A DNA stretch of 64,000 nucleotides from Bacteroidia bacterium. GTDB lineage: Bacteria > Bacteroidota > Bacteroidia > AKYH767-A > OLB10. Positions 3-31,080 of this stretch are shown piece after piece. The position numbers and the translations under genes are program-made. The notes under the pieces were generated by a model. The model saw only the letters and a program-made list of their open reading frames with translations. It ran no database searches and was not told where the DNA came from. The DNA is taken from positions 4,241 to 68,240 of the forward strand of contig JBBRAW010000005.1 in assembly GCA_038206385.1 (NCBI GenBank). The letters run 5' to 3'. Every line of letters starts with the position of its first letter. Within the stretch, counting starts at the first letter, position 1.

Positions 3-3000
3 TTCAATGCACATCGTATTGATGTTCCAGTTCCAGTTCAAACGGTAGCAGATTTACGAGAACTAGCAAAAAAAACCAATACCAGTTTTGTTACAATTAT
101 GCTCAGCATCTTTGAGACGTTTTTATACAAAGTGACAGGTCAAAAGGAGTTAGTAGTAGGACTCCCATCATCTGGACAAAGCGCTGAAGGACTTTATAAT
201 TTGGTTGGTCATTGCGTGAATTTATTACCTATCAGAACTAGCTTAGATCCCCAAATGACCTTTCTAGAGTATCTAAAGGAGAGACGAGGCTACCTTTTTG
301 ATGCTTTTGATCATCAACAATTTACCTTTGGGAATCTAGTGCGTAAATTAAATATAAATAGAGACCCTTCCCGAATACCATTAGTGCCAGTAGTGTTAAA
401 TGTTGATATCGGTTTTACAGATGGATTTCAGTTTAGCGGTCTTACCTTTGACTTCTCAACAAACCCACGTTTTTATGAGAATTTTGAGCTGTTTCTAAAT
501 GCTTCAGGAAATGGTAATAATTTATTATTAGAATGTACTTATAATATTGATTTATTTGAAACATCGATGATGGAATTGCGCATGCAAGAATTCATCCATG
601 TAATGCAACAAGTGATTACGAATTCCACACAACAGATTGCAAAGATTTCTGCCATGACAACAAAAGAACAGGTTGTATTAAGTACTCTGAATTTGAATAT
701 TAAAGACTATCCAACAAGTAAAGGGATACATGAATTATTCTCAGAGAAAGCGACCTTATTCCCAAATAGAATTGCTACTTCTAGCAATGCCAATAGTTAC
801 TCTTATAGTAGAGTAGATCGTTTATCAACTGCGATTGCAGCTCAACTACAACAACGAGGTGTAAAGCCAGGTGATTTTGTTGGCGTTTGCCTTCCGAGAG
901 TTGTCGAACTACCAATGGTGCTTCTTGCAATCATGAAAACAGGCGCCGCTTATGTTCCATTGGATCCGAATTTTCCTGCCGATCGATTACGATTAATGTT
1001 AGATGATTCACAAGCAGGAATAGTAATAGCAACAAAAAAATTAGCAGCAGATCTTGAATTAACTTCTGAACAAGTATTTTATTTTGATGAAGAAGAACTA
1101 AAAAATTTCACTACCGATTTATTTGTTCCAGTACCTTTTTCTGCGGATCAATTAGCGTATGTACTTTATACTTCTGGATCAACAGGAAAACCAAAAGGTG
1201 TAATGGTAAAACATAGTGGGGTAGTAAATCTCATGACTGATTTACAAACAACTTTTAACTTTAAACCTGAAGATACCTTACTAGCAATAACAACTATTTC
1301 ATTTGATATTTCTGTTCTTGAATTCTTTTTACCACTTCTTAGTGGAGCAGGTGTACATCTTGCAACTAGAGAACAAGCAATGGATGCTACTTGGCTAGAT
1401 AAAACAATTCAAGAATATCCAATTACATATATGCAAGGTACTCCCGCAACATGGGAATTACTTTTAACATCTGGATGGAGAGGTGCAAAACATTTAACAG
1501 TTTTATGTGGAGGAGAAGCTTTACGTGTTGAACTAGCAGAAAAACTTTTTGGTAAAAATTTAGCTGTTTGGAATTTATACGGACCAACAGAAACAACTAT
1601 TTGGTCGACTATAAAAAAAATAGAGATAAGTGATTTTCATAATACACGTAATGGTGGAGTTAGCATTGGTAAAGCTGTTGCCAATACACAATTATATATT
1701 GTAGATGAATTCGGACAACCTTGTCCATTAGGTGTTGCTGGAGAATTATGGATTGGTGGGGATGGTGTTTCAACTGGATACCTCAACCGACCAGAATTAA
1801 ATGCGGAAAAATTTATTCCGAATACTTTTACTTCAGGAATGATTTATCGTACTGGTGATAGAGTATCGGTTGATACAGAAGGAAATCTTCATTTCTTAAA
1901 TCGCCTTGATCATCAAGTAAAAATACGTGGTTACCGAATTGAGTTAGGAGAAATTGAAGCTGCACTAAATAAATCACCAGGTATTCGTCAAGGTGTTGTT
2001 GTAGCACGACAAAATCAATCGGGAGATAATTTTCTTGCTGCCTATTTTATTGCAGAAACGAATGGCATTGAAATTCCTAAATTAGATCTTCAGAAAAAAT
2101 TGATTCAAGCATCACGCGAAAGCATGTCATCAATTTTACCAGATTACATGATTCCTACTGCTTGGATGTTATTGGATAAATTTCCACTTACACCAAATGA
2201 TAAGATCGACAGAAAGGCATTGCCTGATCCACAAATAAATCGTGAAATAACAAGAAGTAATGTATCCGAAGAATCGTTTAGTAAAATTGAAAAAATAATT
2301 GCTGACGTTTGGAAACAAATTCTAAATGTTCAAGAAATAGCACTCGATGATGATTTCTTTAAGTTAGGCGGTCACTCATTACTTGCTGTACGAATGATGG
2401 TTGATTTGGAACATATTACTGGAATAAAATTACCGCTTGCAGTATTATTTACCAATCCTACTATTGGTGCACTGAGTAAATTATATGAAACACCACCAGA
2501 AGATTTAATTTGGAATCCTTTAGTTATCATTAAAGAAACAGGAAGTCGTAAACCATTGTATTTTTCACATGGAATTAGTGGCAACGTTTTCAAGTATCAT
2601 GCATTAGCACAACTGCTCGACAATGATCAACCAAGTTATGGATTACAAGCTATTGGATTAAATGGAAAAGATGAGCCACTATCAGTAATGGAAGATATTG
2701 CAGCACATCATGTAAAAGAAATTATTTCGTTTCAGCCAGAAGGTCCTTATGCACTAGCAGGAGGTTCCTTTGGTGGTTATCTCGCTTACGAAATGGCGTT
2801 GCAATTAAGAGCTCTTGGAAAAGAAGTTAGCTTCTTATGCTTATTCGATTTAGATGCAGCATCAGAACTTGAATTCTTATCAAAAGGAATGAAACAAATA
2901 AAAGGAGCCCAACTTTTTGCTCAAAGATTTGTGAAACGCGCAGTAAGTTTTATAAGTGCTGATAAAGAAGAACGTCAAAAATATCTTCAAGCCAAGATGC

Positions 3001-3371
3001 GAAATAAAAGTAAACAAGGTGCTGGAAATGTTGATTATGATTTAGAATCGTGGCTCGACAAACATAAAATGGTTGAGTTAATAGGTGAAGAGTCCGCTGC
3101 TTATTTCCGAAATATTGAAGAGGCTTGCTACAAAGCTATGACTGATTATAAAATAAAAAAATATGATCGCGACATCACCTTAATACGTGCGCAAGAAGGA
3201 TATTTCAACAATACTTACGCACATGATTTAGGATGGAAACATTTCACAAGTGGAAAAGTGGATGTTCATGTTGTACCTGGTGATCATAACTCGATTTTCT
3301 GGGAACCAAATGTTTTTGAATTAGCTAAAACAGTTAACAAACCCCTTAATCATCTTGCCAAGAAAAAATAA
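3..3371 (+). CDS. NRPS terminal module, 5'-truncated by the window: (C)-A(Gly-type)-T-TE
   Basis: Frame is open from position 3 (FNAHRIDV...), so the gene starts upstream of the window. A-domain motifs YTSGSTGKPKG, FDISVLE, NLYGPTETT, GELWIGG, YRTGD, QVKIRGYRIELGEIE. T domain LGGHSLL. TE motifs GGSFGG and PGDH. Manual specificity code DILQLGLIWK. Confidence 0.93.
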   Translation, partial: FNAHRIDVPVPVQTVADLRELAKKTNTSFVTIMLSIFETFLYKVTGQKELVVGLPSSGQSAEGLYNLVGHCVNLLPIRTSLDPQMTFLEYLKERRGYLFDAFDHQQFTFGNLVRKLNINRDPSRIPLVPVVLNVDIGFTDGFQFSGLTFDFSTNPRFYENFELFLNASGNGNNLLLECTYNIDLFETSMMELRMQEFIHVMQQVITNSTQQIAKISAMTTKEQVVLSTLNLNIKDYPTSKGIHELFSEKATLFPNRIATSSNANSYSYSRVDRLSTAIAAQLQQRGVKPGDFVGVCLPRVVELPMVLLAIMKTGAAYVPLDPNFPADRLRLMLDDSQAGIVIATKKLAADLELTSEQVFYFDEEELKNFTTDLFVPVPFSADQLAYVLYTSGSTGKPKGVMVKHSGVVNLMTDLQTTFNFKPEDTLLAITTISFDISVLEFFLPLLSGAGVHLATREQAMDATWLDKTIQEYPITYMQGTPATWELLLTSGWRGAKHLTVLCGGEALRVELAEKLFGKNLAVWNLYGPTETTIWSTIKKIEISDFHNTRNGGVSIGKAVANTQLYIVDEFGQPCPLGVAGELWIGGDGVSTGYLNRPELNAEKFIPNTFTSGMIYRTGDRVSVDTEGNLHFLNRLDHQVKIRGYRIELGEIEAALNKSPGIRQGVVVARQNQSGDNFLAAYFIAETNGIEIPKLDLQKKLIQASRESMSSILPDYMIPTAWMLLDKFPLTPNDKIDRKALPDPQINREITRSNVSEESFSKIEKIIADVWKQILNVQEIALDDDFFKLGGHSLLAVRMMVDLEHITGIKLPLAVLFTNPTIGALSKLYETPPEDLIWNPLVIIKETGSRKPLYFSHGISGNVFKYHALAQLLDNDQPSYGLQAIGLNGKDEPLSVMEDIAAHHVKEIISFQPEGPYALAGGSFGGYLAYEMALQLRALGKEVSFLCLFDLDAASELEFLSKGMKQIKGAQLFAQRFVKRAVSFISADKEERQKYLQAKMRNKSKQGAGNVDYDLESWLDKHKMVELIGEESAAYFRNIEEACYKAMTDYKIKKYDRDITLIRAQEGYFNNTYAHDLGWKHFTSGKVDVHVVPGDHNSIFWEPNVFELAKTVNKPLNHLAKKK

Positions 3372-3566
3372 TTTATACAATTCGTACGTTATAATTATGT
3401 TTAGATGATTCACAAAAGCATCTGCAATTTATTTAATATGGAAACAGTATAAATTTATTAATTCAAAAACAATAGTTAGTTAAATCGAGTTAGATATTTT
3501 ACCAATACTGAATATCAATTCGACAATCAATAATCACCCATTAAAAATTGCATTACGATTTCTAAC

Positions 3567-20726: not shown

Positions 20727-22214
20727 CTATTTTGTATTTAATGCCAACATGATTTCTCTAAAACTTGCAAGACCTGATTCTAAGTTTTCGATAATATCAT
20801 TTGCCAATACATCAGGATCCGGCAAATTATCGAGATCAGCAAGTGATTTATCTTTTAACCAAGTAATATCCAAACTAGTTTTATCTCTAGAAATAATTTC
20901 ATCATATTTAAACTTTCTCCAACGACCTTCAGGGTTTGTATCTGTGTTGTATGTCTCTTTTCTTTTGTTTCTATTCTCAGGTTTATAACAAGCTATGAAG
21001 TCTTTTAGTACTTCGATATTCAATGGATTCTTCTTTAAAGTGTGATGGATATTCGTTCGATAATCATACACCCATATTTCTTTTGTACAAGGGTTTTTAC
21101 TTGCTGGTTTATTGTCGAAGAAAATAACATTTGCTTCTACTCCTTGAGCATAAAATATTCCTGTTGGTAAGCGTAAAATTGTATGCAGATCGGTTGTTTC
21201 CAACAATTTTTTACGAACTGTTTCACCTGCCCCGCCTTCAAACAAAACATTATCGGGTAATACAACGGCTGCCATTCCAGTTGTTTTTAGCATGGAACGA
21301 ATGTGTTGTACAAAGTTCAATTGCTTGTTACTTGTTGTTGCCCAAAAGTCCTGACGGTTATACGTTAAATAATCTTTCTCTTGCTCGCCTTCGTCATTAG
21401 TAAAGGTTTGAGAGCTCTTTTTCCCGAATGGTGGATTAGCTAAAACATAATCGTAAGTTGAAGGAGAAGCAGCAATTAATGCGTCTGCAGGCGAAATAAA
21501 ATTATCGCTTTCGATATCGCCAATGTTATGCAAGAATAAATTTATTAATGCTAATCGTCTTGTGCCTGCAACAATTTCATTTCCGAAAAACGTTTCCAAT
21601 TTCAGAAACTTATTTTGTGCTTTATCAAGTTTATTATTTTCTACAATATAATCATAAGCAGCTAAAAAGAATCCGCCTGTTCCACAACTTGGATCTGCAA
21701 TAGTTTTCATGGGTTGTGGTTGAATACATTCTACCATTGCACGAATTAAAGGACGTGGTGTGAAGTATTGCCCTGCACCACTTTTAACATCTTGTGCGTT
21801 TTGTTCTAATAGTTTTTCATAAATATCTCCTTTTACATCGGCACCCATTACCAACCATTGTTCGCTATCAATCATATCTATGATTTTAGCAAGCATAGCA
21901 GGATCCTGAATTTTATTTTGGCTCTTAGTAAATATTTGCCCTAGTATTCCTTTCGCAGTGCTTAACTCACGTAACAACGTAGCATAATGCAATTCAAGTT
22001 CTGCTCCCTTTTTACTAGTTAAGCTTTCCCAATTGTATCCTTTAGGAATTGGTAGTTTACGATTATGCGGAGGCTTTGCATATTCATCTGCCATTTTCAA
22101 AAACAGTAAATACGTTAACTGCTCTAAATAATCTCCATACCCCACGCCTACATCACGTAGTGGATTATAGAAAGACCATACTTTGGAGACTATGGAAGAG
22201 GTGTTGTTGCTCAT
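20727..22214 (-). CDS. hsdM: Type I restriction-modification methyltransferase subunit (N6-adenine)
   Basis: YLEQLTYLLFLKM, AGQYFTPR, DPSCGTGGF, ANPPF, LRLPTGIF. Reading frame is intact. Confidence 0.94.
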   Translation of the reverse strand: MSNNTSSIVSKVWSFYNPLRDVGVGYGDYLEQLTYLLFLKMADEYAKPPHNRKLPIPKGYNWESLTSKKGAELELHYATLLRELSTAKGILGQIFTKSQNKIQDPAMLAKIIDMIDSEQWLVMGADVKGDIYEKLLEQNAQDVKSGAGQYFTPRPLIRAMVECIQPQPMKTIADPSCGTGGFFLAAYDYIVENNKLDKAQNKFLKLETFFGNEIVAGTRRLALINLFLHNIGDIESDNFISPADALIAASPSTYDYVLANPPFGKKSSQTFTNDEGEQEKDYLTYNRQDFWATTSNKQLNFVQHIRSMLKTTGMAAVVLPDNVLFEGGAGETVRKKLLETTDLHTILRLPTGIFYAQGVEANVIFFDNKPASKNPCTKEIWVYDYRTNIHHTLKKNPLNIEVLKDFIACYKPENRNKRKETYNTDTNPEGRWRKFKYDEIISRDKTSLDITWLKDKSLADLDNLPDPDVLANDIIENLESGLASFREIMLALNTK

Positions 22215-22219
22215 GATTT

Positions 22220-22768
22220 TTATATTGATATGGGTAAAGAATGAATATAGTCTAAATGATTTGAAGTTCTGTGTAATACATTTAGATATTCATTGAGCTT
22301 AGGAGCAAATTGAATGTAAAAATCTTCATGCAGCTTGTTTTTAAAAATTGTAATGGCTTTTTTAATAAACAGATAAACCTGTTGATTATATCTGGTGAAA
22401 CAAGTTGTAAAATGATTGGTGGACATCGAAAATGGTATTTCCAACACCAACATTATCAATTCCATTTCCAACAATTTATCTTTGCATACCTTGGCAAACT
22501 CATTGATTTTTTTGTTGCAAGTAGCCAACATGTTTGCTAATTGCAATTCTTCAGAAAAGCCTTTGTAATTTTTACTGAATAATATTTCTAATTCTTTTTT
22601 AGTCTGTTCAAAAAGTTCATTTTCTCCATTAACTTTATCAATATAGTTAATAATCAAATAATCGTGAAACTGCCTATTGTTTGATGCAGCTTTTATAACC
22701 AATTTTTCCAAATCGGTTTTTGAAAGCCGTGAAATCTCCTCTTTCACAAATGAATCAATTTTTGCCAT
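22220..22768 (-). CDS. Hypothetical helical protein
   Basis: 182-aa intact ORF ending 5 bp before hsdM; no motif recognised. Confidence 0.6.
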   Translation of the reverse strand: MAKIDSFVKEEISRLSKTDLEKLVIKAASNNRQFHDYLIINYIDKVNGENELFEQTKKELEILFSKNYKGFSEELQLANMLATCNKKINEFAKVCKDKLLEMELIMLVLEIPFSMSTNHFTTCFTRYNQQVYLFIKKAITIFKNKLHEDFYIQFAPKLNEYLNVLHRTSNHLDYIHSLPISI

Positions 22769-22769
22769 G

Positions 22770-22945
22770 CTTAATTTCGTTTTTCACTTTTATTTCCTGC
22801 GTTTTACCTTTCATTGCTCCATGTGGTGTGGTATATTAAAAAATGAAACTAACCACCTCTTCCTGCACTTCGCCTGTTTCAAAAATGTTTTTGAGATGCT
22901 TGGTTATGGCAGGTTGTTACACCCCAAATAATTCAGCTATTTTTT
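22770..22945 (-). pseudogene. RhuM-family (virulence/DNA-binding protein) fragment
   Basis: Manual translation QKIAELFGV*QPAITKHLKNIFETGEVQEEVVSFIF*YTTPHGAMKGKTQEIKVK: two in-frame stops and truncated. Confidence 0.7.
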
Positions 22946-22956
22946 GCTTTTTTCAT

Positions 22957-23097
22957 TTGTCTGAATTAGGATTTATTGATTTTAGGATTTTTGTTTGCAT
23001 TATAATTGGCAATATTAAATAATTGTAGGATTTTATTTTGGTTTTTAATATTGATAATCTTATCATCCTAACATCTTAAAAATCCTAATTCAGACAA
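22957..23097. repeat. Palindromic element copy A (about 141 bp, 18-bp perfect terminal inverted repeat)
   Basis: TTGTCTGAATTAGGATTT ... AAATCCTAATTCAGACAA. Confidence 0.85.
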
Positions 23098-23179
23098 TTT
23101 CCCCTCAAACGTCTTCTTCAAAATATTCTGCATTAATGTTTCTGCTTGTTGCAAACTTTGGCTAATTGTTTCTTCTATT

Positions 23180-23533
23180 TTAAACATATAAACTTTTGTT
23201 TGATAAATCAATTACTAAGTCACTAATTTCATAATTAAACCATTCTTTAAATAGTTTGAATGTTATTTTTTGAGGCCAATCATTTTCATCTATCCACATT
23301 CCTTCTAACTCAATTTCAAAAATATCTTTATAATATTTCTTCGCTATTTTTTCGGGATTGTCAAATAACTCATTGGTAAGATAGGTCTTTGATTCACCCA
23401 ACATATTTTCTTCCAAAGTCATGTCTGGTGTTAAATTATTATTCCAATCAATGAAAGGTTTTTTATATGAAATTGTAATTGCACTTCTACTTAATATATT
23501 CATACGATTAGATTTTATTTTACTTCTCTTCAA
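23180..23533 (-). CDS. Small acidic conserved-looking hypothetical protein (passenger cassette)
   Basis: SRSAITISYKKPFIDW...IFEIELEGMWIDENDWP...LFKEWF. Flanked by about 225-bp direct repeats. Confidence 0.7.
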   Translation of the reverse strand: MKRSKIKSNRMNILSRSAITISYKKPFIDWNNNLTPDMTLEENMLGESKTYLTNELFDNPEKIAKKYYKDIFEIELEGMWIDENDWPQKITFKLFKEWFNYEISDLVIDLSNKSLYV

Positions 23534-23540
23534 ATACCAA

Positions 23541-23688
23541 TGTCTGAATTAGGATTTTTAGGATTAATTGATTTTAGGATTTTTGTTTGCATTATGATTG
23601 GCAATATTAAATGATTGCCTGATTTTATTTTGGTTTTTAATATTGATAATCTTATCATCCTAACATCTTAAAAATCCTAATTCAGACA
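23541..23688. repeat. Palindromic element copy B (148 bp, 20-bp perfect terminal inverted repeat)
   Basis: TGTCTGAATTAGGATTTTTA ... TAAAAATCCTAATTCAGACA; interior nearly identical to copy A. Confidence 0.85.
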
Positions 23689-23689
23689 A

Positions 23690-24960
23690 GTTTCCCCTCA
23701 GAAGCCATTTCAAAATACTCTGCCTTAATGTTTCTGCTTGTTGTAAACTGTTTGTAATTGTATCTTCTATTTTATCGCATACGGTGAGTTTACTTTCTAA
23801 TTCGGAGACGATGAGTTGTTGTTCTTTGAGAGGAGGAATAAATAACGGATAGTTTTTAAAGAATTTGATTCAATGCTTTCCACTGTAGTTCCGTCTTTAC
23901 TACATTTCTGCCTGATTTAATTATTATATGCTTTTATGAACCAATAAATAAATTCAGAAGTCGCTAATTCATTAGGACTCAATGTTTGTAAATCTTGATT
24001 AACTGTTAGAGTTTTTCCTGCAATAGCTACTGGGAAAGTGTGCCTTAGAATTCCACTTCTCATTACAAATAAAATTGCACCTTTTGGAATTCTATTCGCA
24101 GAAGATTTTAATATTGCTTAATCTGTTATCTTATTTATGGAATCATTGATGACTCCAATTTTCATATCCTTAGAAGTGACCCATAGATTTGTACCATTCT
24201 CCCAATATTTATTTACTTGTTTACTAGGTGTACCACCACCTTTCCAAGAACCTAAATCAGATAATTTATATAACTTCCAACCCTTCGGCAATTCCCCTTT
24301 GTCTGAACTAGGATTTTTAGGATTAGAAGATTGTAAGATTTTTTTCTTCTCTCTTCTTTGATTTTTTAAAATCGTATCATCCTTAAATCCTAGGGATCCT
24401 AATTCAGACGATGTAAGTTTCCCTTCAAAAGCCCATTTCAACAAACTTTGGCGGTAAACTTTTAATTGTGCTTGCGCGGTTTTTAGTTGGGATATACCGT
24501 TATCTAATTCGCTGAAGAGTTCTTCAATTTTTGCTACAATAGCTTGTTGTTCGTTGAGGGGTGGGAGCGGAAGTTCAATTTTTTGCAAATCGGTTTTCGC
24601 TAAACTTGGAATAGTGGTACTTTTGTCAAGTTTTTGAAAATTAAAACTCTGGCAAAAGAAAAATAAAAATTTGCTTTCTAATAATTCGTTGAAGGGTGAA
24701 AAACCAAATGCGGTATCAACATTCCAAAATTTTGTTTTCACATAAATTGGTCTATTTATAGTTCCTTTTCTTCCAATAATTGTTGCTCCTTCGTTACATA
24801 AATACTCATCTGCATAACCCATTATTCCTGCACTTCCATATATTGGATATTTTCCATTTGGATTAACAACCGCTTTCTGGTTTTTTCCATTTCTAATGTC
24901 ACATACTTCTCCCAACTTCTTTCTCTGCCAACCCTTCGGCAATTTTATTTCTTCACTCAT
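23690..24960 (-). pseudogene. hsdS: Type I R-M specificity subunit, disrupted in TRD2
   Basis: LPKGW..KLGEVC and PLPPLNEQQAIVAKIEELFSELD...RQSLLKWAFEGKL. Stop at 24118, then further stops and frameshifts in the second TRD and conserved region (PPLKEQQLIVSELESKL...QQAETLRQSILK). Confidence 0.88.
24300..24410. repeat. Palindromic element copy C (111 bp), read in frame inside the hsdS linker
   Basis: TGTCTGAACTAGGAT ... ATCCTAATTCAGACG; translates as SSELGSLGFKDD...SSNPKNPSSDK. Confidence 0.8.
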
Positions 24961-24968
24961 ATTTCGTT

Positions 24969-25112
24969 TCAGTCAAATAGCCATCAAATACATTATTGCT
25001 TGTTGGTCAATGCTTTTTAAAAATTTTCTTTTCCTTTTTTAGTTTCTAGTCAAATAGGCCAAAACTTTCAATTGTTGATAACTTGTCTGTTCAGTCAAAT
25101 AACCATCAAATA
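24969..25112. repeat. Intergenic direct repeats TCAGTCAAATA(G/A)CCATCAAATA
   Basis: Copies at 24969-24990 and 25091-25112; partial copies near 25048 and 25170. Confidence 0.6.
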
Positions 25113-25182: not shown

Positions 25183-26634
25183 TTAAGCCCAACTTGGAAT
25201 GTATTTTACAAATTTTCGTGATGTGTTTTCAGGGTCAACTTCCTTTATTAAACCTGCTTCAAAAGTATCTTTAATAATTCTTGAAACCATTGCAGTATTT
25301 TCATCAGCAATTTTAAATCGCTGCCTTAAACTTTGGTTGGTCATAATTTCATTGGTTACAAATTTCAAACAAGTATGTTGATAGCAAGCTCTTATTCTGT
25401 CATTCTTATCCATATCTGCAAATTTTTGATACGCATATAAAATTACTTTAGTATGTTTCTCTTGGATATGCACATCGTAAGCAGGTAGCTGAAACAATTC
25501 AATATTGAAAACTACTTTATCAATACCGCTTCCTCGTTCTTCACAAATACGAAACCTTCGCATAATAGATGCTAAATCTTCATTACGACTTTGGTATTCA
25601 TCAATAAAACAATTGGGAGTAATTAAGGGTAACCCGGGGTTTGAAATTTCAATACGGTCAGAAAAAATTTCAACCATTGGTCCAGTTCCTATCTCTTCAA
25701 AATCCTAATGGATAATAGAATTGCCAACTAATTCACGAATTGCTATTTCGGGATACATGGTTACGGCATCTCTTAATGCTTGTCCAATAATTTCATTGCT
25801 TGGCAATACATCATTGATATATTTTAACAAGCGTTCAAAACCTACCGCATAACCAAATTTACCTTCTTGGTCTTTTAATGTTTTAATTTTTCCTTTCCCA
25901 TCATATTGAATTACTCTTACTGCTTTTCGTTTTACAGAATCAAATGCCTGTATGTCTTTTGCAAAAAGTAAAGCACCCAAATTGGTAATGCTGTAGCCGT
26001 TTAAAGTTTGCTTAATAAATTTTTCGCTTTCAAATTTTTCAATTACGGCATCACGAGTTGTTGGGTAAGGAACTTTCAATAAATCAAAGTAGCATTGTGT
26101 ATCTAACATTCTTACAACATCAGCCGCCGTCGCAACTTGCAATGATATTACCTTTTCAAAAACATGCTTGGGAAATTTTGTCCAAATCTTTTTTTCTTTC
26201 TCTGGAAAATCTTTTAGTGTTCGAGTAATACTGCCTACCCTCACATAATCATGATTAGAAAAACAAGTTGGTTGGCCATGTGCTGCTTGTATTTGAAAAA
26301 CTGTTAATGCCTTCTCATGATAAACCGTTTCCTGTATTGAAATTTCAATTCGTGGTGAAAGACGTTGTAAAAGCCAGTGCTCTAATTCTTCATTGCCAAC
26401 TTTGTGCAAAGATGCTTTAAAGGTAGTGCCTTCGGGTAAAAGTGTAATATCACTAATTCCAAAAACTAAATAGCCAAACGGTTCATTTTGCAAACAAACA
26501 CCATTGCTTAATGCAGAAATATATTTTCCGATTTCTTCTTCGGTTTTAAGATTGAGTTTAAACTCCGCCCACTCGCATTCTTTGGGAAGCCTAAGTAACC
26601 GTTTAATTGTTTTATTTAATTCGTATTCGGTCAT
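25183..26634 (-). pseudogene. AlbA_2/Schlafen-like DNA-binding plus RecG-C/HATPase-like ATP-binding protein, split by one nonsense codon
   Basis: ECEWAEFK, IGKYISALSN, GYLVFGI, IRELVGNSIIH*DF (TAG at 25705 in frame), EISNPG, RICEERGSG. Confidence 0.82.
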
Positions 26635-26635
26635 T

Positions 26636-26690
26636 TTATGCTTCTAATGCGTCATTTAATTCGTTAACAATTCTTTTCATCACTTCTTAT
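26636..26690 (-). repeat. Orphan copy of the hsdR 3' end
   Basis: TTATGCTTCTAATGCGTCATTTAATTC matches 28303-28329 at 26/27 nt; encodes ...ELNDALEA* versus ...ELNDALAA*. Confidence 0.75.
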
Positions 26691-26727: not shown

Positions 26728-27843
26728 TTAATTCACCATATACTTCTTCTCAATCAACTCCAACACATTTTCATTATACATAGCTTGGTTGTTATAAGAA
26801 ATTCTTTTTGCATGCGCTAACTTACCAATAATTATTGCCGGATGTATTTTATATTCTGCAGCACATTCTTCTACTTTACTTGCCGATAAATATCCTAAGT
26901 TAGCATTCAGATATTCCAATATTTCGCAATGCATTAATTTTTGTGAAGCCAGCTCATTAGCTTCTTTTTCCATTGTATTTAACGCTCCATCTTTTAAGTT
27001 ATCTAAAACAAAGCTCACTTCATCATCAAGATGTTTTAATACATGGGCTATTTCATGAGCAACAGTAAACCAAAAATTATCGATTCGTTTATATCTGCCT
27101 GTATAAACAATAACTGGATTTCCTTTGTACAAAAAAGCAGCTCCATCTAAATATGTTTTCTGCAAATGTGGCAATACAAAAAATACAACACCAACTTTGG
27201 AAAGTTCCCTTATAAAAATATTAATTCCGTCTTTTGTGTTGGTGTAAGTATGAATGTTATTATAAAGTTTTTCAAGTTTCTCTTTGTCGAAATTTGTCGT
27301 TTTAACTTTCGCTGCTTCGTTCCTAGCTTTCTGGTACCATGTTATCGCATAGGAGGCATTAAATTGGTTAAAAGCTTCCGATTTGCGTGTAAGGCAAGGC
27401 AAATAATCCTTATCAAGTATTGTGAAATCAAGTTTGTCCCAACTCCAAAATTTAAGCACTTGTTGTTCGAGTTCTTTTGCGGTGCCAAAGGGTTTTAACC
27501 AATTCTTTTTAAGCATGTCTTTTATTGGCATGCGTTCGTAAATAAGACTTTTTAAATCCGCGTCAATTTCATTTTGAGTTTTATCTTGCGCTAACCAAAG
27601 CCGATATCCAGTATCAATATTTATCCAGTATTCAGCAGAAGTATTAAATACCTCTCCAAGTACTCTTGCCATTTCTAAAGTGAGCGCTTGTTTATCCTGA
27701 AGAATTTTATTGAGGTGCTTAACTGTTATACCAATTACTTCGGCTAAATCATCTTGCGTCCAATCACGCAAGTCCATTTGCTCACGAATAAAATATCCGG
27801 GACCAAATTTCTTTGAAGCTTTTAATGCAGTTGTTTGTATCAT
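26728..27843 (-). CDS. higA: HigA-type HTH antitoxin fused to an ImmA/IrrE (M78) metallopeptidase domain
   Basis: GPGYFIRE...WTQDDLAEVIG HTH; RIDNFWFTVAHEIAH (HExxH); EKEAN. Confidence 0.85.
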   Translation of the reverse strand: MIQTTALKASKKFGPGYFIREQMDLRDWTQDDLAEVIGITVKHLNKILQDKQALTLEMARVLGEVFNTSAEYWINIDTGYRLWLAQDKTQNEIDADLKSLIYERMPIKDMLKKNWLKPFGTAKELEQQVLKFWSWDKLDFTILDKDYLPCLTRKSEAFNQFNASYAITWYQKARNEAAKVKTTNFDKEKLEKLYNNIHTYTNTKDGINIFIRELSKVGVVFFVLPHLQKTYLDGAAFLYKGNPVIVYTGRYKRIDNFWFTVAHEIAHVLKHLDDEVSFVLDNLKDGALNTMEKEANELASQKLMHCEILEYLNANLGYLSASKVEECAAEYKIHPAIIIGKLAHAKRISYNNQAMYNENVLELIEKKYMVN

Positions 27844-27864
27844 GATGAACAGTTTTACTTTGTA

Positions 27865-28176
27865 TTAATCGGAATAGTGATTTGATATTTCTTGAAGATA
27901 GAACTTTCCTATTGTTTGATTTTCGTTAATCCACTCAACTTCCATTTCAAGTCTGTATTTATCATTTAGTCGAACAGAATATCTGTTGTTGCTTCCTTGC
28001 AACTTTTTAAATCGCAAGCCTCTGTCCGCTAAAAGATCGTTAATATTTGTTGCAGCTTCTATTTTTTGTATTGTAGCCAAAAAATTTTCAATTATATATT
28101 TCGGCAGCGAAAGTTTCTTCGACTTCCCTGTTAAATATAGTTTTTCAAGCTCTTTGTTATCAATATAAACGACCAC
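27865..28176 (-). CDS. higB: HigB/RelE-like toxin (plasmid maintenance killer family)
   Basis: LEKLY..G, LRFKKLQG, RYSVRLNDKYRL; directly upstream of higA. Confidence 0.85.
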   Translation of the reverse strand: MVVYIDNKELEKLYLTGKSKKLSLPKYIIENFLATIQKIEAATNINDLLADRGLRFKKLQGSNNRYSVRLNDKYRLEMEVEWINENQTIGKFYLQEISNHYSD

Positions 28177-28302: not shown

Positions 28303-31080
28303 TTATGCTGCTAATGCGTCATTTAATTCTAATAAAATATTTTCATAATCTTCCTTAAACAATTGATAAAACTTACCTAAACCACCGTTTCTGTTAAAAG
28401 GATCTAGATCAAAATCCTCCTTTTCAATATGAAAACTATTCGTCACATAATCTTTAATCATTCTAAGCTAGGCCATTTGATCTTCCGTAAAGCGGTTATG
28501 CTTGCCGGCATTTTTCTTAAAAATCCATTTTTTAAAATTCTCGTCTACAATCGTATCAAAAGCTGTTAGCGTAGCATCTAAACCGCTCACTTTACGGATG
28601 AGCGAAACAATTGCTGTTAATTCATTTCGCACTGAACCATTACATTGCCCTAAAACCTCATAAGCTCTCCACACATTTAGTGGTGCTAATGCAGGATTAT
28701 CACTTTGTAGTTTTTCCAACACTTCTTGAATCATTTTAAAGGTAAGTTCTCTTCTACGAAAAGGTTGATTATAAAAAATCTGCAATGCCATTAATTCATC
28801 TTTGTGTTGTTGCATCCACTCAGTAAACGATTTAATTATTTCAGTTGCTTTGTCTTTGTTTTCTTTATCCCAACCAACATTAATTATTTCATCAGGATTT
28901 GACATATCTACTTTTTGTTCATGAGCTTTACGAACATTTTCAATGTATTCATTTAGTTCTCCAGTGAATACTCTTGCTGCTTCATTCTGTATTTTTTCTA
29001 ACTCAACTTTAATTGCAGCTTCAATTTCTAATGGAGAAGATCCTACTTTTTCATTCTTAATTTTTAATTCTACATTTTCTATCACATCTGGATTAAAAGC
29101 ATTCAACAATTCTTTCACTACTTGTGAAACAGATTTCCCGTTGGCTTTTTCTGCAAATTGCTTTTTTTCTTTCTCTGTAATTTGCTTATCTAATCGAGTA
29201 AGTCTGTTTGCTAATGAAGTAAACAATTCTTCTTCTCTAGCTCCAACTGCAACAGCTTGCAATAAATCTTTTAGCGGTACGCCCGGTTTTTTCTCTAGTG
29301 CTCGGCTATCTGTCTTTAAACTTTTTGTTACACCTATCGCATCGATAATTACAAAATGATCTTTAGTATGTTTGGCGGTAGGAGTTACTTTTTGCAAACT
29401 ATCTAAATCAATCGTTCGTGTTCCGCGACCTTTCATTTGTTCAAAGTAGTTTTTACTTTTCACATCGCGCATAAACAGTAAACATTTTAAAGGCTTTACA
29501 TCTGTACCTGTAGCAATCATATCTACTGTAACTGCAATTCGTGGATAGTAAGCATTTCTAAATTCCGACAATGTACCTTTTGGGTCATCGGCATTGTATG
29601 TAATTTTTTTGTAGAATTTATTTTCCTCTGCAAATTCTTGTCTTACTATATCAATGATATCATTTGCATGACTATCTGTTTTTGCAAAGATTAATGTTTT
29701 CGGTACTTCAAAAATTCCGTTCTTATCAAAACGATCATTAAAAATATTGGGGAGGTTTTCTTTAAATGATTTAATGATAGTTCGAATTTGATTTGGGTTC
29801 ACAACATCTTTATCCAATTGCTGTTTGGAATAATTTTCATCTTCATCTTGCAACTCCATTCGCTTTTTTCTGCTTAAGCGTTCGCGATGTTCTACATATT
29901 CCCCTTTCCAAATTGTAGCACCTTGTTGAGTTATTTTGGTATCAATAATAAAAACTTCATAGCCAACATTTACTCCATCAGCAACAGCCATTTCATGGGA
30001 ATATTCACTCACTAAATTTTGATTGAAATAGCCAATTGTACGTTTATCGGGTGTAGCTGTTAATCCAATTCCAAAAGCATCATAATATTCTAACACTTGT
30101 TTCCAAAGATTATAAATACTTCGATGACATTCATCTATTACAATAAAGTCAAAAAACTCAATTGGCATTTTTGAATCGTATTCAATTGGAGGAATTTCCT
30201 TTGGTTGCCAGTTGCGTTCGTTCGGGTTTTCTTCTTCCTCTTTTTCATCTAATTCTTTACCTTTTAAAACCGAATATAAACGTTGAATAGTACTAATACA
30301 AACCTGGCTATCTGAAGCGATGTAACTTGATTTCAATCATTGCACGCTATATAATTCTGTGAACTTGCGGTTATCATCATTCGGTATGAACGACATAAAT
30401 TCTTGCTCTGCTTGTTCACCTAAATTTTTTGTGTCTACTAAAAATAAAACTCGTTTTGCTTTAGCGAATTTTAGTAATCTATAAATATAAGTGATTGCAG
30501 TAAAAGTTTTACCTGAACCTGTTGCCAATTGAATTAGTGCTCTAGGTCGGTTTTCTTTAAACGATATTTCAAGATTATTAATCGCATTAACTTGGCATTC
30601 TCTCAGTCCTTCATTATTCAATTTTGGCAAATCAAATACCCTTTTGCGAAGTGATTTATTTGTAGTTAACGAATCCCTAAGTGTTTCAGGTTTATGAAAA
30701 TTAAAAACTTCTCTTGCTCTTGGTTTCGGATCTGTAAAATCTGTGAATCTCGTTACCTCACCTGTACTGATATAAACAAAAGGCAAAGGCTCATTTTTAA
30801 GATGTTTCAATTTTGCGTTTGCGTATTCTTAACCTTGTCCTTCGTGAACATTCATTCGATGTCCTTCTTCTTCCCGCTTCGCTTCAATTACACCACAAGG
30901 TTTACCATCAACAAATAATACATAATCTGCAGGACCATCATCTGTCAGATATTCTTTTACCGCTACACCAATTCCAGCATTCAAATTTATCTGTTTAATG
31001 TTTTGAATAACCCAACCGCAAGCTGTCAATTGCTTGTCGATATTATCTCTTGCTATTTGCTCCGGATTTTAATTTGTCAT
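28303..31080 (-). pseudogene. hsdR: Type I restriction endonuclease R subunit (EcoAI/EcoEI-like) with four in-frame stops
   Basis: One 926-codon frame from ATG 31080. Stops at 31069 (TAA), 30829 (TAA), 30337 (TGA) and 28468 (TAG). Motifs IEAK, ATGSGKT, DECH, GLTATP, QMKGRGTR. Confidence 0.92.

Follow-up and report, generated by a model that had tools for sequence, protein, structure and literature searches.

We analyzed a 64,000-nt stretch of DNA from a Bacteroidia bacterium (hereafter the window; GenBank assembly GCA_038206385.1, contig JBBRAW010000005.1, positions 4,241 to 68,240), in which two direct repeats of 225 bp lie in a type I restriction-modification (R-M) operon and bracket a small open reading frame (ORF), ORF107. 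We consider it fairly probable that the repeat is two structures placed side by side and differing in age, the scar of an insertion and a hairpin element, and that the whole is a variant of insertion with long target duplication. Comparison with relatives showed an ORF107/tail event that apparently goes back to an ancestor common to a whole group of type I R-M operons in Bacteroidota. It also showed that the hairpin at each tail end is apparently a derivative, similar to a miniature inverted-repeat transposable element (MITE), of a nuclease unit in which a GxxExxY (PDDEXK_3) gene is flanked by terminal inverted repeats (TIRs). In the proposed course of events, an ORF107-family cargo gene would have entered the last ~85 nt of hsdS by recombination, after which it lay between two copies of the sequence for the HsdS C-terminal helix. 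Of these, the one upstream (T, tail B in the window) would complete hsdS, and the one downstream (T′, tail A) would be the displaced end.

The repeat search reproduced both repeats that a preliminary description of the window had reported (22957–23182 and 23541–23774), each consisting of an hsdS C-terminal helix tail and a hairpin element of 141 or 149 nt and together bracketing the ORF of 107 amino acids (aa). The element parts (22966–23104 and 23558–23696) matched at 94% identity and the tail parts (23117–23182 and 23709–23774) at 88%. The minus-strand reading of tail A is KIEETISQSLQQAETLMQNILKKTFEGKL, and that of tail B is KIEDTITNSLQQAETLRQSILKW..EGKL with an apparent 1-nt deletion. Two further details of that description were borne out: the TAA of ORF107 (23180–23182) overlaps the first bases of repeat A, and a RhuM fragment stands right after copy A of the element. 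By tblastn, the fragment matched the RhuM protein of locus L029 (PF13310) at 50% identity over 32 aa (residues ~33–64, in the N-terminal part; E = 2e-6), and the Pfam scan gave no match of its own. The parts of the repeat region are listed below.

22957..23097, no strand: hairpin element copy A, 141 nt, TIR TTGTCTGAATTAGGATTT (repeat search, 15-mer count, folding)
23098..23182, minus strand: tail A (T′), a second, displaced hsdS C-terminal helix, beginning at the ORF107 stop (aligns with tail′ of L139, L144, L147, L231 and L233)
23180..23503, minus strand: ORF107, conserved 107-aa cargo gene, whose family (~107 aa) gave 88 homologous matches at 54–84% identity
23541..23689, no strand: copy B of the hairpin element, 149 nt (same as A at 133/138 positions, with a 9-nt indel besides)
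23690..23774, minus strand: tail B (T), the actual hsdS 3′ end, with an apparent 1-nt deletion (sequence reading)

The likely start of ORF107 is the ATG at 23503; the listed TTG at 23533 is less favoured.

The tail duplication recurred in related operons, whose loci are cited here by handles such as L139. In L139, L144/145, L231/232 and L233, ORF107 and a ~85-nt copy of the hsdS tail were colinear with window positions 23533–23099 (ORF107 plus tail A) at 80–83% identity. In these loci the real hsdS tail ended 1–5 nt ahead of the ORF107 start, the second copy began at the ORF107 stop, and the hairpin element was absent at both tail positions. The order tail–ORF107–tail′ was found in L139, L144/145, L147, L150, L231/232 and L233 and in the partial contigs L153, L157, L151 and L158; at least nine related type I R-M loci had it with the same junction and no hairpin element. 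A profile hidden Markov model of the tail placed tail and tail′ on the two sides of ORF107 in 9 of the 11 loci of this hsdS type, with decayed copies in L150, L151 and L158. The two ORF107 subclades had the same junction between the ORF107 stop and tail′, a sign of a single ancient duplication, and tail′ in the relatives apparently retains the old junction to the next gene.

Palindromes provoke rearrangements, and a single local event confined to this genome, either a tandem duplication or an unequal crossover and perhaps provoked by the hairpin, would suit a locus that is full of lesions and whose element copies are 96% alike and confined to it. Because the ORF107 tail duplication is common to many independent assemblies and metagenomes, we regard this event, which the preliminary description had set against its own reading, as extremely improbable; at most the element part of the repeat could fit it.

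Units of gene plus tail also occurred in series. L157 and L151 had the order ORF107–tail′–a gene of 115/123 aa–tail″–ORF182, that is, two units one after the other, and the gene that followed tail′ varied among loci (ORF182, a 407-aa protein, SIR2_2, GxxExxY, GmrSD, an AAA ATPase, a four-helix protein of the 23S_rRNA_IVP type or a UDG-family protein). The end of hsdR was duplicated as well. Its last 27 nt (28303–28329) recur behind higA (26636–26662), where they abut the ATG of the next gene, and higBA thus lies between two hsdR tails. In L230, the operon most like that of the window, three 70-nt hsdR tails with a 555-nt period (2240–3435) separate two TIR–GxxExxY–TIR units; the last hsdR tail overlaps the hsdS start, and a 54-nt fragment of an hsdS 5′ end precedes the series. 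The duplicated tails differ in length, being ~85 nt for hsdS and, for hsdR, 27–35 nt in the window and 70 nt in L230. These arrangements support the view that cargo genes are stacked in this R-M operon family, probably each together with a copy of the tail of the upstream hsd gene. The preliminary description had proposed units of gene, target-gene tail and hairpin. The stacking of gene and tail stood, as seen in the relatives, in L157 and L151, around higBA and in L230, but the hairpin as a part of the unit did not, because units without any palindrome were present in L139, L144, L147, L157, L231 and L233. Another palindromic repeat (TTATTAGGTTTAAACCTAATAA-like, several copies) was seen after the hsdR stop in L139 (1520–1650) and L230 (550–640).

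Tail′ could instead be what is left of a second hsdS, or half-hsdS, that once followed ORF107 in an array of several hsdS genes, the recognition domains having since been lost by deletion or replacement. The hsdS gene is itself built of repeated units of domain plus helix, half-size hsdS genes are present in L230, and a loss of cargo that leaves the 3′ tail of a gene does occur (AlbA_2/HATPase_c_4 in L139 and L233). We nevertheless judge this origin unlikely: no relative had recognition-domain sequence between ORF107 and tail′, the ORF107 stop overlapped the first bases of tail′ in every locus, and the hsdR tails around higBA and the GxxExxY units would demand several hsdR genes.

To compare the tails within and between loci, we took mean identities. 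Tail and tail′ of the same locus shared 88.6% (range 84–94%), more than tail′ and tail′ across loci (77.5%) or real tail and real tail across loci (80.9%). Copies that diverged independently after one ancient duplication should give the opposite pattern, indicating that the tails keep recombining. In L231, T and T′ share a perfect core of 48 nt that carries locus-specific variants. Both within-locus gene conversion and repeated recombinational re-insertion with the tails as arms fit this pattern, and the two are inseparable on these data. We infer that the two tails serve as homology arms that would exchange sequence by gene conversion. RecA-type recombination may then bring the cargo to further operons whose tail is similar, and units of gene plus tail would accumulate; a dedicated recombinase would be unnecessary.

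A function of tail′ is another possible cause of its conservation. It might be kept as a short relay frame or junction adaptor from the ORF107 stop to the next start, acting by translational coupling or as a free HsdS-helix peptide. An ATG overlapping the ORF107 stop (ATGnTTrA) opens a frame of 31–39 codons through tail′ in the window, L139, L144 and L147, and this frame ends at, or no more than 5 nt from, the next ATG in L139 and L144. Tail′ was, however, not consistently a reading frame: the ATG overlaps the ORF107 stop in four loci, tail′ of L231 lies in frame 0 behind the stop and has no start codon, and three loci (L150, L151 and L158) are decayed. In the window, the frame runs into the hairpin and the dead RhuM gene, and when micro-ORFs of tail′ were sought as called proteins, no candidate was found. 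Conversion from the real tail explains the conservation equally, and a functional tail′ appears rather improbable.

Copies A and B of the hairpin element probably postdate the tail duplication. They are identical at 133 of 138 positions (96%) and differ by one 9-nt indel, whereas the adjacent tails agreed at 66 of 89 positions (74%) when compared ungapped, a count inflated by the 1-nt deletion in tail B; the best local alignment of the tails gave 85% over 82 nt. The greater likeness of the elements (Fisher p = 1e-5, on the ungapped count) is the basis for placing copies A and B after the tails. One possible origin is that an element was copied locally to the corresponding position of the second tail; another is a cross between a tail–element–ORF107–tail′ allele and a tail–element–RhuM allele with the right crossover between tail′ and tail.

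Several points weigh against insertion with long target duplication as the origin of the repeat. The hsdS loci fetched gave filled sites for the comparison with empty ones that the preliminary description had in mind, but no empty-site allele, in which the hsdS tail of a close relative is joined directly to the downstream gene, was among them; the direction of the event, insertion with duplication, is thus one that we infer. Genes of both kinds, ORF107 and ORF182, were also found where no tail is duplicated (L140, L142, L159 and L227–L229), so the tails are not required for their spread. Transfer by homologous recombination is deduced from concerted evolution alone, and plain intralocus gene conversion would yield the same pattern. 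In addition, there is no homology on the far side by which simple conversion could place A and B at the same spot of both tails.

The hairpin element itself was present in more copies than the preliminary description had reported. The inverted arms of element A (22957–22974 and 23080–23097) are 18 nt long and 100% complementary, and the element arms can be read as 18 nt perfect or as 41 nt at 78%. The terminal 15-mer TGTCTGAAYTAGGAT occurred six times in the window and never in 100 shuffles, indicating three elements (A, B and C) rather than two, the third at 24299–24411. All three fold as long imperfect hairpins (DNA fold z = −6.4, −7.1 and −4.6). Within hsdS, the reading frame runs on through copy C, staying open across the element in a gene that is otherwise broken. 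The same site is occupied in L158 (2256–2387, with the same right junction) and L159 (1670–1813), and the frame is open in both of these hsdS genes. The repeat type at this site follows the locus, being GGAT-rich in the window and TGAT-rich in L158 and L159, and in each of the three it matches the other copies of the locus; this would be odd for a single old insertion.

Contigs of the Logan collection from run X1, probably the source sample, matched the region 100%, base for base, at a depth of only 3–5x. At ≥80% likeness to copy B, the three copies of the window were the only ones in this run. Judged from these low-depth contigs of one run, A and B do not seem to belong to a large homogeneous family in this genome. 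A soil metagenome of another study (run X2) contained 143 nt identical to window 23526–23668 (element B with 15 nt of flank), indicating that the same or a very close strain is present elsewhere. Many copies were found in other genomes, namely a Chitinispirillales metagenome-assembled genome (MAG), a Cytophagales MAG and L095.

We scanned one genome per species for element ends with the pattern GTCTGAAYTAGGAT, a gap of 0–12 nt and TAGGAT. Element ends were found in at least 119 genome loci of Chitinophagales, Cytophagales, Saprospiraceae, Bacteroidales, Sphingobacteriaceae, Ignavibacteria, Chitinispirillales, Spirochaetes and others. The association with passenger genes that the preliminary description had expected took another form in this wide spread: among the matches listed, none of 140 ends followed a FEGKL-type tail and none of 119 loci held an hsdS tail of this type, but a GxxExxY gene (PF13366/TIGR04256) was present in 10 of the 119, mostly within 150 nt of inverted repeats. 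Several ORF107 loci likewise hold a GxxExxY gene. In L122 and L230, such a gene is flanked on the left by TTGTCTGAAC and then TAGGATT/TGATT repeats and on the right by AATCCTA/AATCA repeats and then GTTCAGACAA, and GxxExxY genes between hairpin-type TIRs with TAGGATT or TGATT subterminal repeats were located at L122:4123–4679, L230:2329–2810 and 2884–3365, L159:2411–2997, L053:2024–2747 and L139:7499–7938. The TIR-flanked GxxExxY gene looks like an undescribed mobile unit with MITE derivatives, and the 111–149-nt elements look like these units minus the gene. To our knowledge, the 125-aa PD-(D/E)xK (GxxExxY) protein is no known transposase, and we know of no transposase partner of the hairpin. 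We found no paper on GxxExxY mobility or on the hairpin repeat, no Rfam family for the hairpin and no match to it by plasmid BLAST; 19 single-end matches in viral contigs were taken as chance.

Elements settled at gene junctions and extreme 3′ ends with modest enrichment. Long ORFs that run into an element end stopped within −6 to +45 nt at 14% of ends, compared with 6.4% of random positions (p = 0.0015), and in seven cases the TGA of GTCTGA was the stop codon. The element end served as the gene end in the hsdS tail of L159 (EGKLV and stop) and the hsdR tail of L230, and the element after the hsdS tail of L159 is in the same position within 1 nt. In this operon family, elements sit where each of the two hsdS helices ends, in the hsdR tail and at the start of hsdM. 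No short target-site duplication or shared target motif was evident at the element junctions read. Long duplications on both sides are not general to the element: among 46 pairs, only L230 and one tandem array showed them.

The preliminary description had likened the locus to a cassette array, and an integron-like system would consist of cassettes of gene, tail and hairpin, with an attC-like hairpin used by a recombinase encoded elsewhere and excision as circles. Three hairpins within 1.5 kb each follow the end of a FEGKL-coding helix, the genes are co-oriented and look promoterless, and the element recurs after the hsdS tail at the same position in L159 and in the hsdR tail of L230. The related loci with gene-plus-tail units and no hairpin, at least nine in number, largely refute this explanation. 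The element ends (TTGTCTGAA...TTCAGACAA, also read as TTGTCTGAAYTAGGAT ... ATCCTARTTCAGACAA) lack the attC core RYYYAAC ... GTTRRRY, and Pfam scans found no integrase at the locus (hsdM to hsdR) or in 11 kb beyond hsdR. The hairpin family was overwhelmingly outside hsdS and adjoined GxxExxY genes (again among the matches listed), the element copies were significantly more alike than the tails, and no circle or deletion joints were seen in the X1 reads, which are of low depth. We therefore consider the hairpin very improbable as a recombination site, and the likeness to a cassette array did not survive in that form.

ORF107 gave no Pfam, NCBIfam, PADLOC or PHROG match, and its AlphaFold (AF2) model (predicted local distance difference test score 75) gave no PDB fold match at E ≤ 0.001. 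ORF182 and gene Y had no NCBIfam, PADLOC or PHROG family. ORF107 stands directly 3′ of hsdS in L139, L142, L144, L147, L150, L158, L231 and L233, and the layout in L139, L142 and L144/145 is hsdR ... hsdS–ORF107 ... hsdM. At the 29 loci with a close co-directional gene upstream of ORF107, that neighbour was Methylase_S in seven, Fic in three and PDDEXK_3 in two, with single cases of RhuM, AlbA_2/HATPase_c_4, a YgjP-like gene, a DNA methylase and ParE; ORF107 is therefore typical cargo of R-M and defence neighbourhoods. ORF182 has the same position in L139, L151 and L230 and also occurs outside R-M loci in L227–L229. Single genes of the two families were seen beside housekeeping genes, outside R-M operons and free of tail duplication, at L227:5001–5549, L228:5001–5549, L229:258–806 and L140:6001–6324. 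The ORF182 and ORF107 families are roaming small genes. Tail duplication as a general property of the two was rejected, being absent in L140, L142 and L227–L229.

The operon is encoded on the minus strand in the order hsdR, higB/higA-like genes, AlbA_2/HATPase_c_4, hsdS (24960–23690), element B, ORF107, tail A, element A, RhuM fragment, ORF182 and hsdM. Its remaining features are as follows.

20727..22214, minus strand: hsdM, intact, 495 aa, the final operon gene (Pfam N6_Mtase and HsdM_N)
22220..22768, minus strand: ORF182, conserved cargo gene without family assignment (91 homologues; no family match)
22776..22956 (approximate), minus strand: remnant of a RhuM gene, cut off on either side and containing stop codons, with an ATG that abuts element A (tblastn to L029 RhuM, PF13310)
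23775..24298, minus strand: second target-recognition domain of hsdS, a pseudogene with two in-frame TAA and a frameshift (sequence reading)
24299..24411, no strand: copy C of the hairpin element, 113 nt, in open frame after the central helix (..FEGKLT) and before KGELPKGW (repeat search, ORF reading)
24412..24960, minus strand: first target-recognition domain of hsdS and central conserved helix (Pfam Methylase_S)
25183..26634, minus strand: AlbA_2/HATPase_c_4 cargo gene, split by an in-frame TAG (Pfam, frame reading)
26636..26662, minus strand: displaced copy of the hsdR 3′ end (..ELNDALEA and stop), abutting the ATG of the AlbA_2 gene (tail comparison)
26728..28176, minus strand: higB-like toxin gene (28176–27865) and helix-turn-helix/M78 antitoxin-like gene (27843–26728), cargo between hsdR tails (Pfam, tail comparison)
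28303..31029, minus strand: hsdR pseudogene in a single frame with three in-frame stops, TAA 30831, TGA 30339 and TAG 28470 (Pfam, frame reading)

Thus hsdR, hsdS, the AlbA_2 gene and RhuM are broken, and hsdM, ORF107, ORF182 and higBA are intact. Six lesions are in-frame nonsense codons (TAA, TGA and TAG) rather than frameshifts, three in hsdR (30831, 30339 and 28470), one in the AlbA_2 gene (~25680) and two in hsdS (24118 and ~23917), and hsdR retains one frame across 2.7 kb despite them; at 3–5x depth, some of these in-frame stops could be assembly errors. Recoding of stop codons was rejected because all three different stop codons occur in frame, and TAA terminates the intact genes. The operon in this genome is dead or dying. 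The truncated RhuM right behind copy A shows that at least one untidy deletion occurred as well. In L139 (3114–3402) and L233 (2405–2566), the AlbA_2/HATPase_c_4 gene is reduced to its 3′ end between the cargo and hsdS. As these remnants illustrate, cargo loss too tends to leave a gene tail and the junction to the following gene. A 23-nt direct repeat (96%; 24968–24990 and 25090–25112, 122 nt apart) lies just upstream of the hsdS start. Promoter and terminator scans gave matches no commoner than in shuffles.

Insertion with long target duplication, in which inserted DNA is flanked by direct target repeats of >30 bp, has been described before (Nobusato et al. 2000, cited in Furuta, Abe & Kobayashi 2010, PMC2853133). 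These duplications often overlap the 3′ end of a gene, carry no mobility genes (transposase or integrase) and come mostly from naturally competent species. The present case is alike in the direct repeats of >30 bp that flank the insert, in a target at a gene 3′ end and in the lack of a mobility gene in the Pfam scans of the locus and the 11 kb beyond hsdR. In the precedent, it is a whole R-M system that enters the chromosome, and empty sites prove it. Here, in contrast, small cargo lies inside an R-M operon and the target is a conserved hsdS or hsdR end; the units form stacks, their repeats undergo concerted evolution and an empty site was not among the loci fetched.

A gene embedded in a type I R-M system is exemplified by PrrC in EcoprrI. 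Type I R-M, BREX, DISARM and Hma operons commonly hold embedded genes, a regularity exploited as 'guilt-by-embedding' (Payne et al. 2024, bioRxiv 10.1101/2024.01.29.577857). The searched passages of that preprint catalogue embedded genes and give no recombination mechanism, with 0 occurrences of 'recombination'. Our operons resemble these in the co-oriented foreign genes nested among the hsd genes, which are higBA, AlbA_2, RhuM, ORF107 and ORF182 in the window and GmrSD, SIR2_2, Fic and UDG in relatives. They differ in their duplicated gene tails, which record in the sequence the way in which genes became embedded. The present case joins both precedents, being R-M operon cargo flanked by long duplications of the operon's own gene ends.

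MITEs, mobile insertion cassettes and the in-frame Rickettsia palindromic elements are known kinds of short mobile repeats. The element is MITE-like in its length (111–149 nt), TIRs, non-coding sequence and long hairpin, and longer relatives with the same ends carry a passenger gene; the in-frame read-through of copy C recalls the Rickettsia palindromic elements. Unlike a MITE, it has as its only linked gene the 125-aa GxxExxY PD-(D/E)xK protein, shows no evident target-site duplication at the junctions read and, in the X1 contigs, is present here in only three copies, all in one locus. With integron arrays the locus shares co-oriented promoterless genes, each followed by an imperfect palindrome. 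An attC core is lacking, however, and the scans of the locus and of 11 kb past hsdR gave no tyrosine recombinase of the IntI type; relatives do without the palindrome, and what recurs along with the cargo here is a piece of the neighbouring gene. In phase-variable hsdS shufflons, inverted hsdS repeats and an invertase swap recognition domains, as described in the portion consulted of a paper on epigenetic invertons (PMC7672463). Extra partial hsdS copies beside hsdS are common to both, but the repeats here are direct, bracket unrelated genes and come with no spare recognition domains, and no recombinase was found at the locus.

A wider reading is possible, though on balance doubtful. The hsd gene ends would form a recombinase-free cassette system, in which tail-flanked cargo is inserted, stacked, swapped and popped out by homologous recombination in any operon of the family. 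Separately, an undescribed family of TIR–GxxExxY units with MITE derivatives would settle at gene ends, supply stops, tolerate being read through and perhaps make the seeding breaks. If true, the recombinase-free cassette system would account for the way in which defence genes enter type I R-M operons. The link of the hairpin family to GxxExxY genes is a separate lead worth following, and it would explain the multi-copy, junction-hugging distribution of GxxExxY.

Embedded genes in R-M, BREX and similar operons now serve the discovery of immune systems, and their route of entry is unexplained. Duplicated hsd ends around cargo, common to many uncultured Bacteroidota and evolving in concert, suggest a concrete and testable mechanism in which gene tails would act as homology arms, and the duplicated tails provide a sequence signature for locating cargo boundaries.

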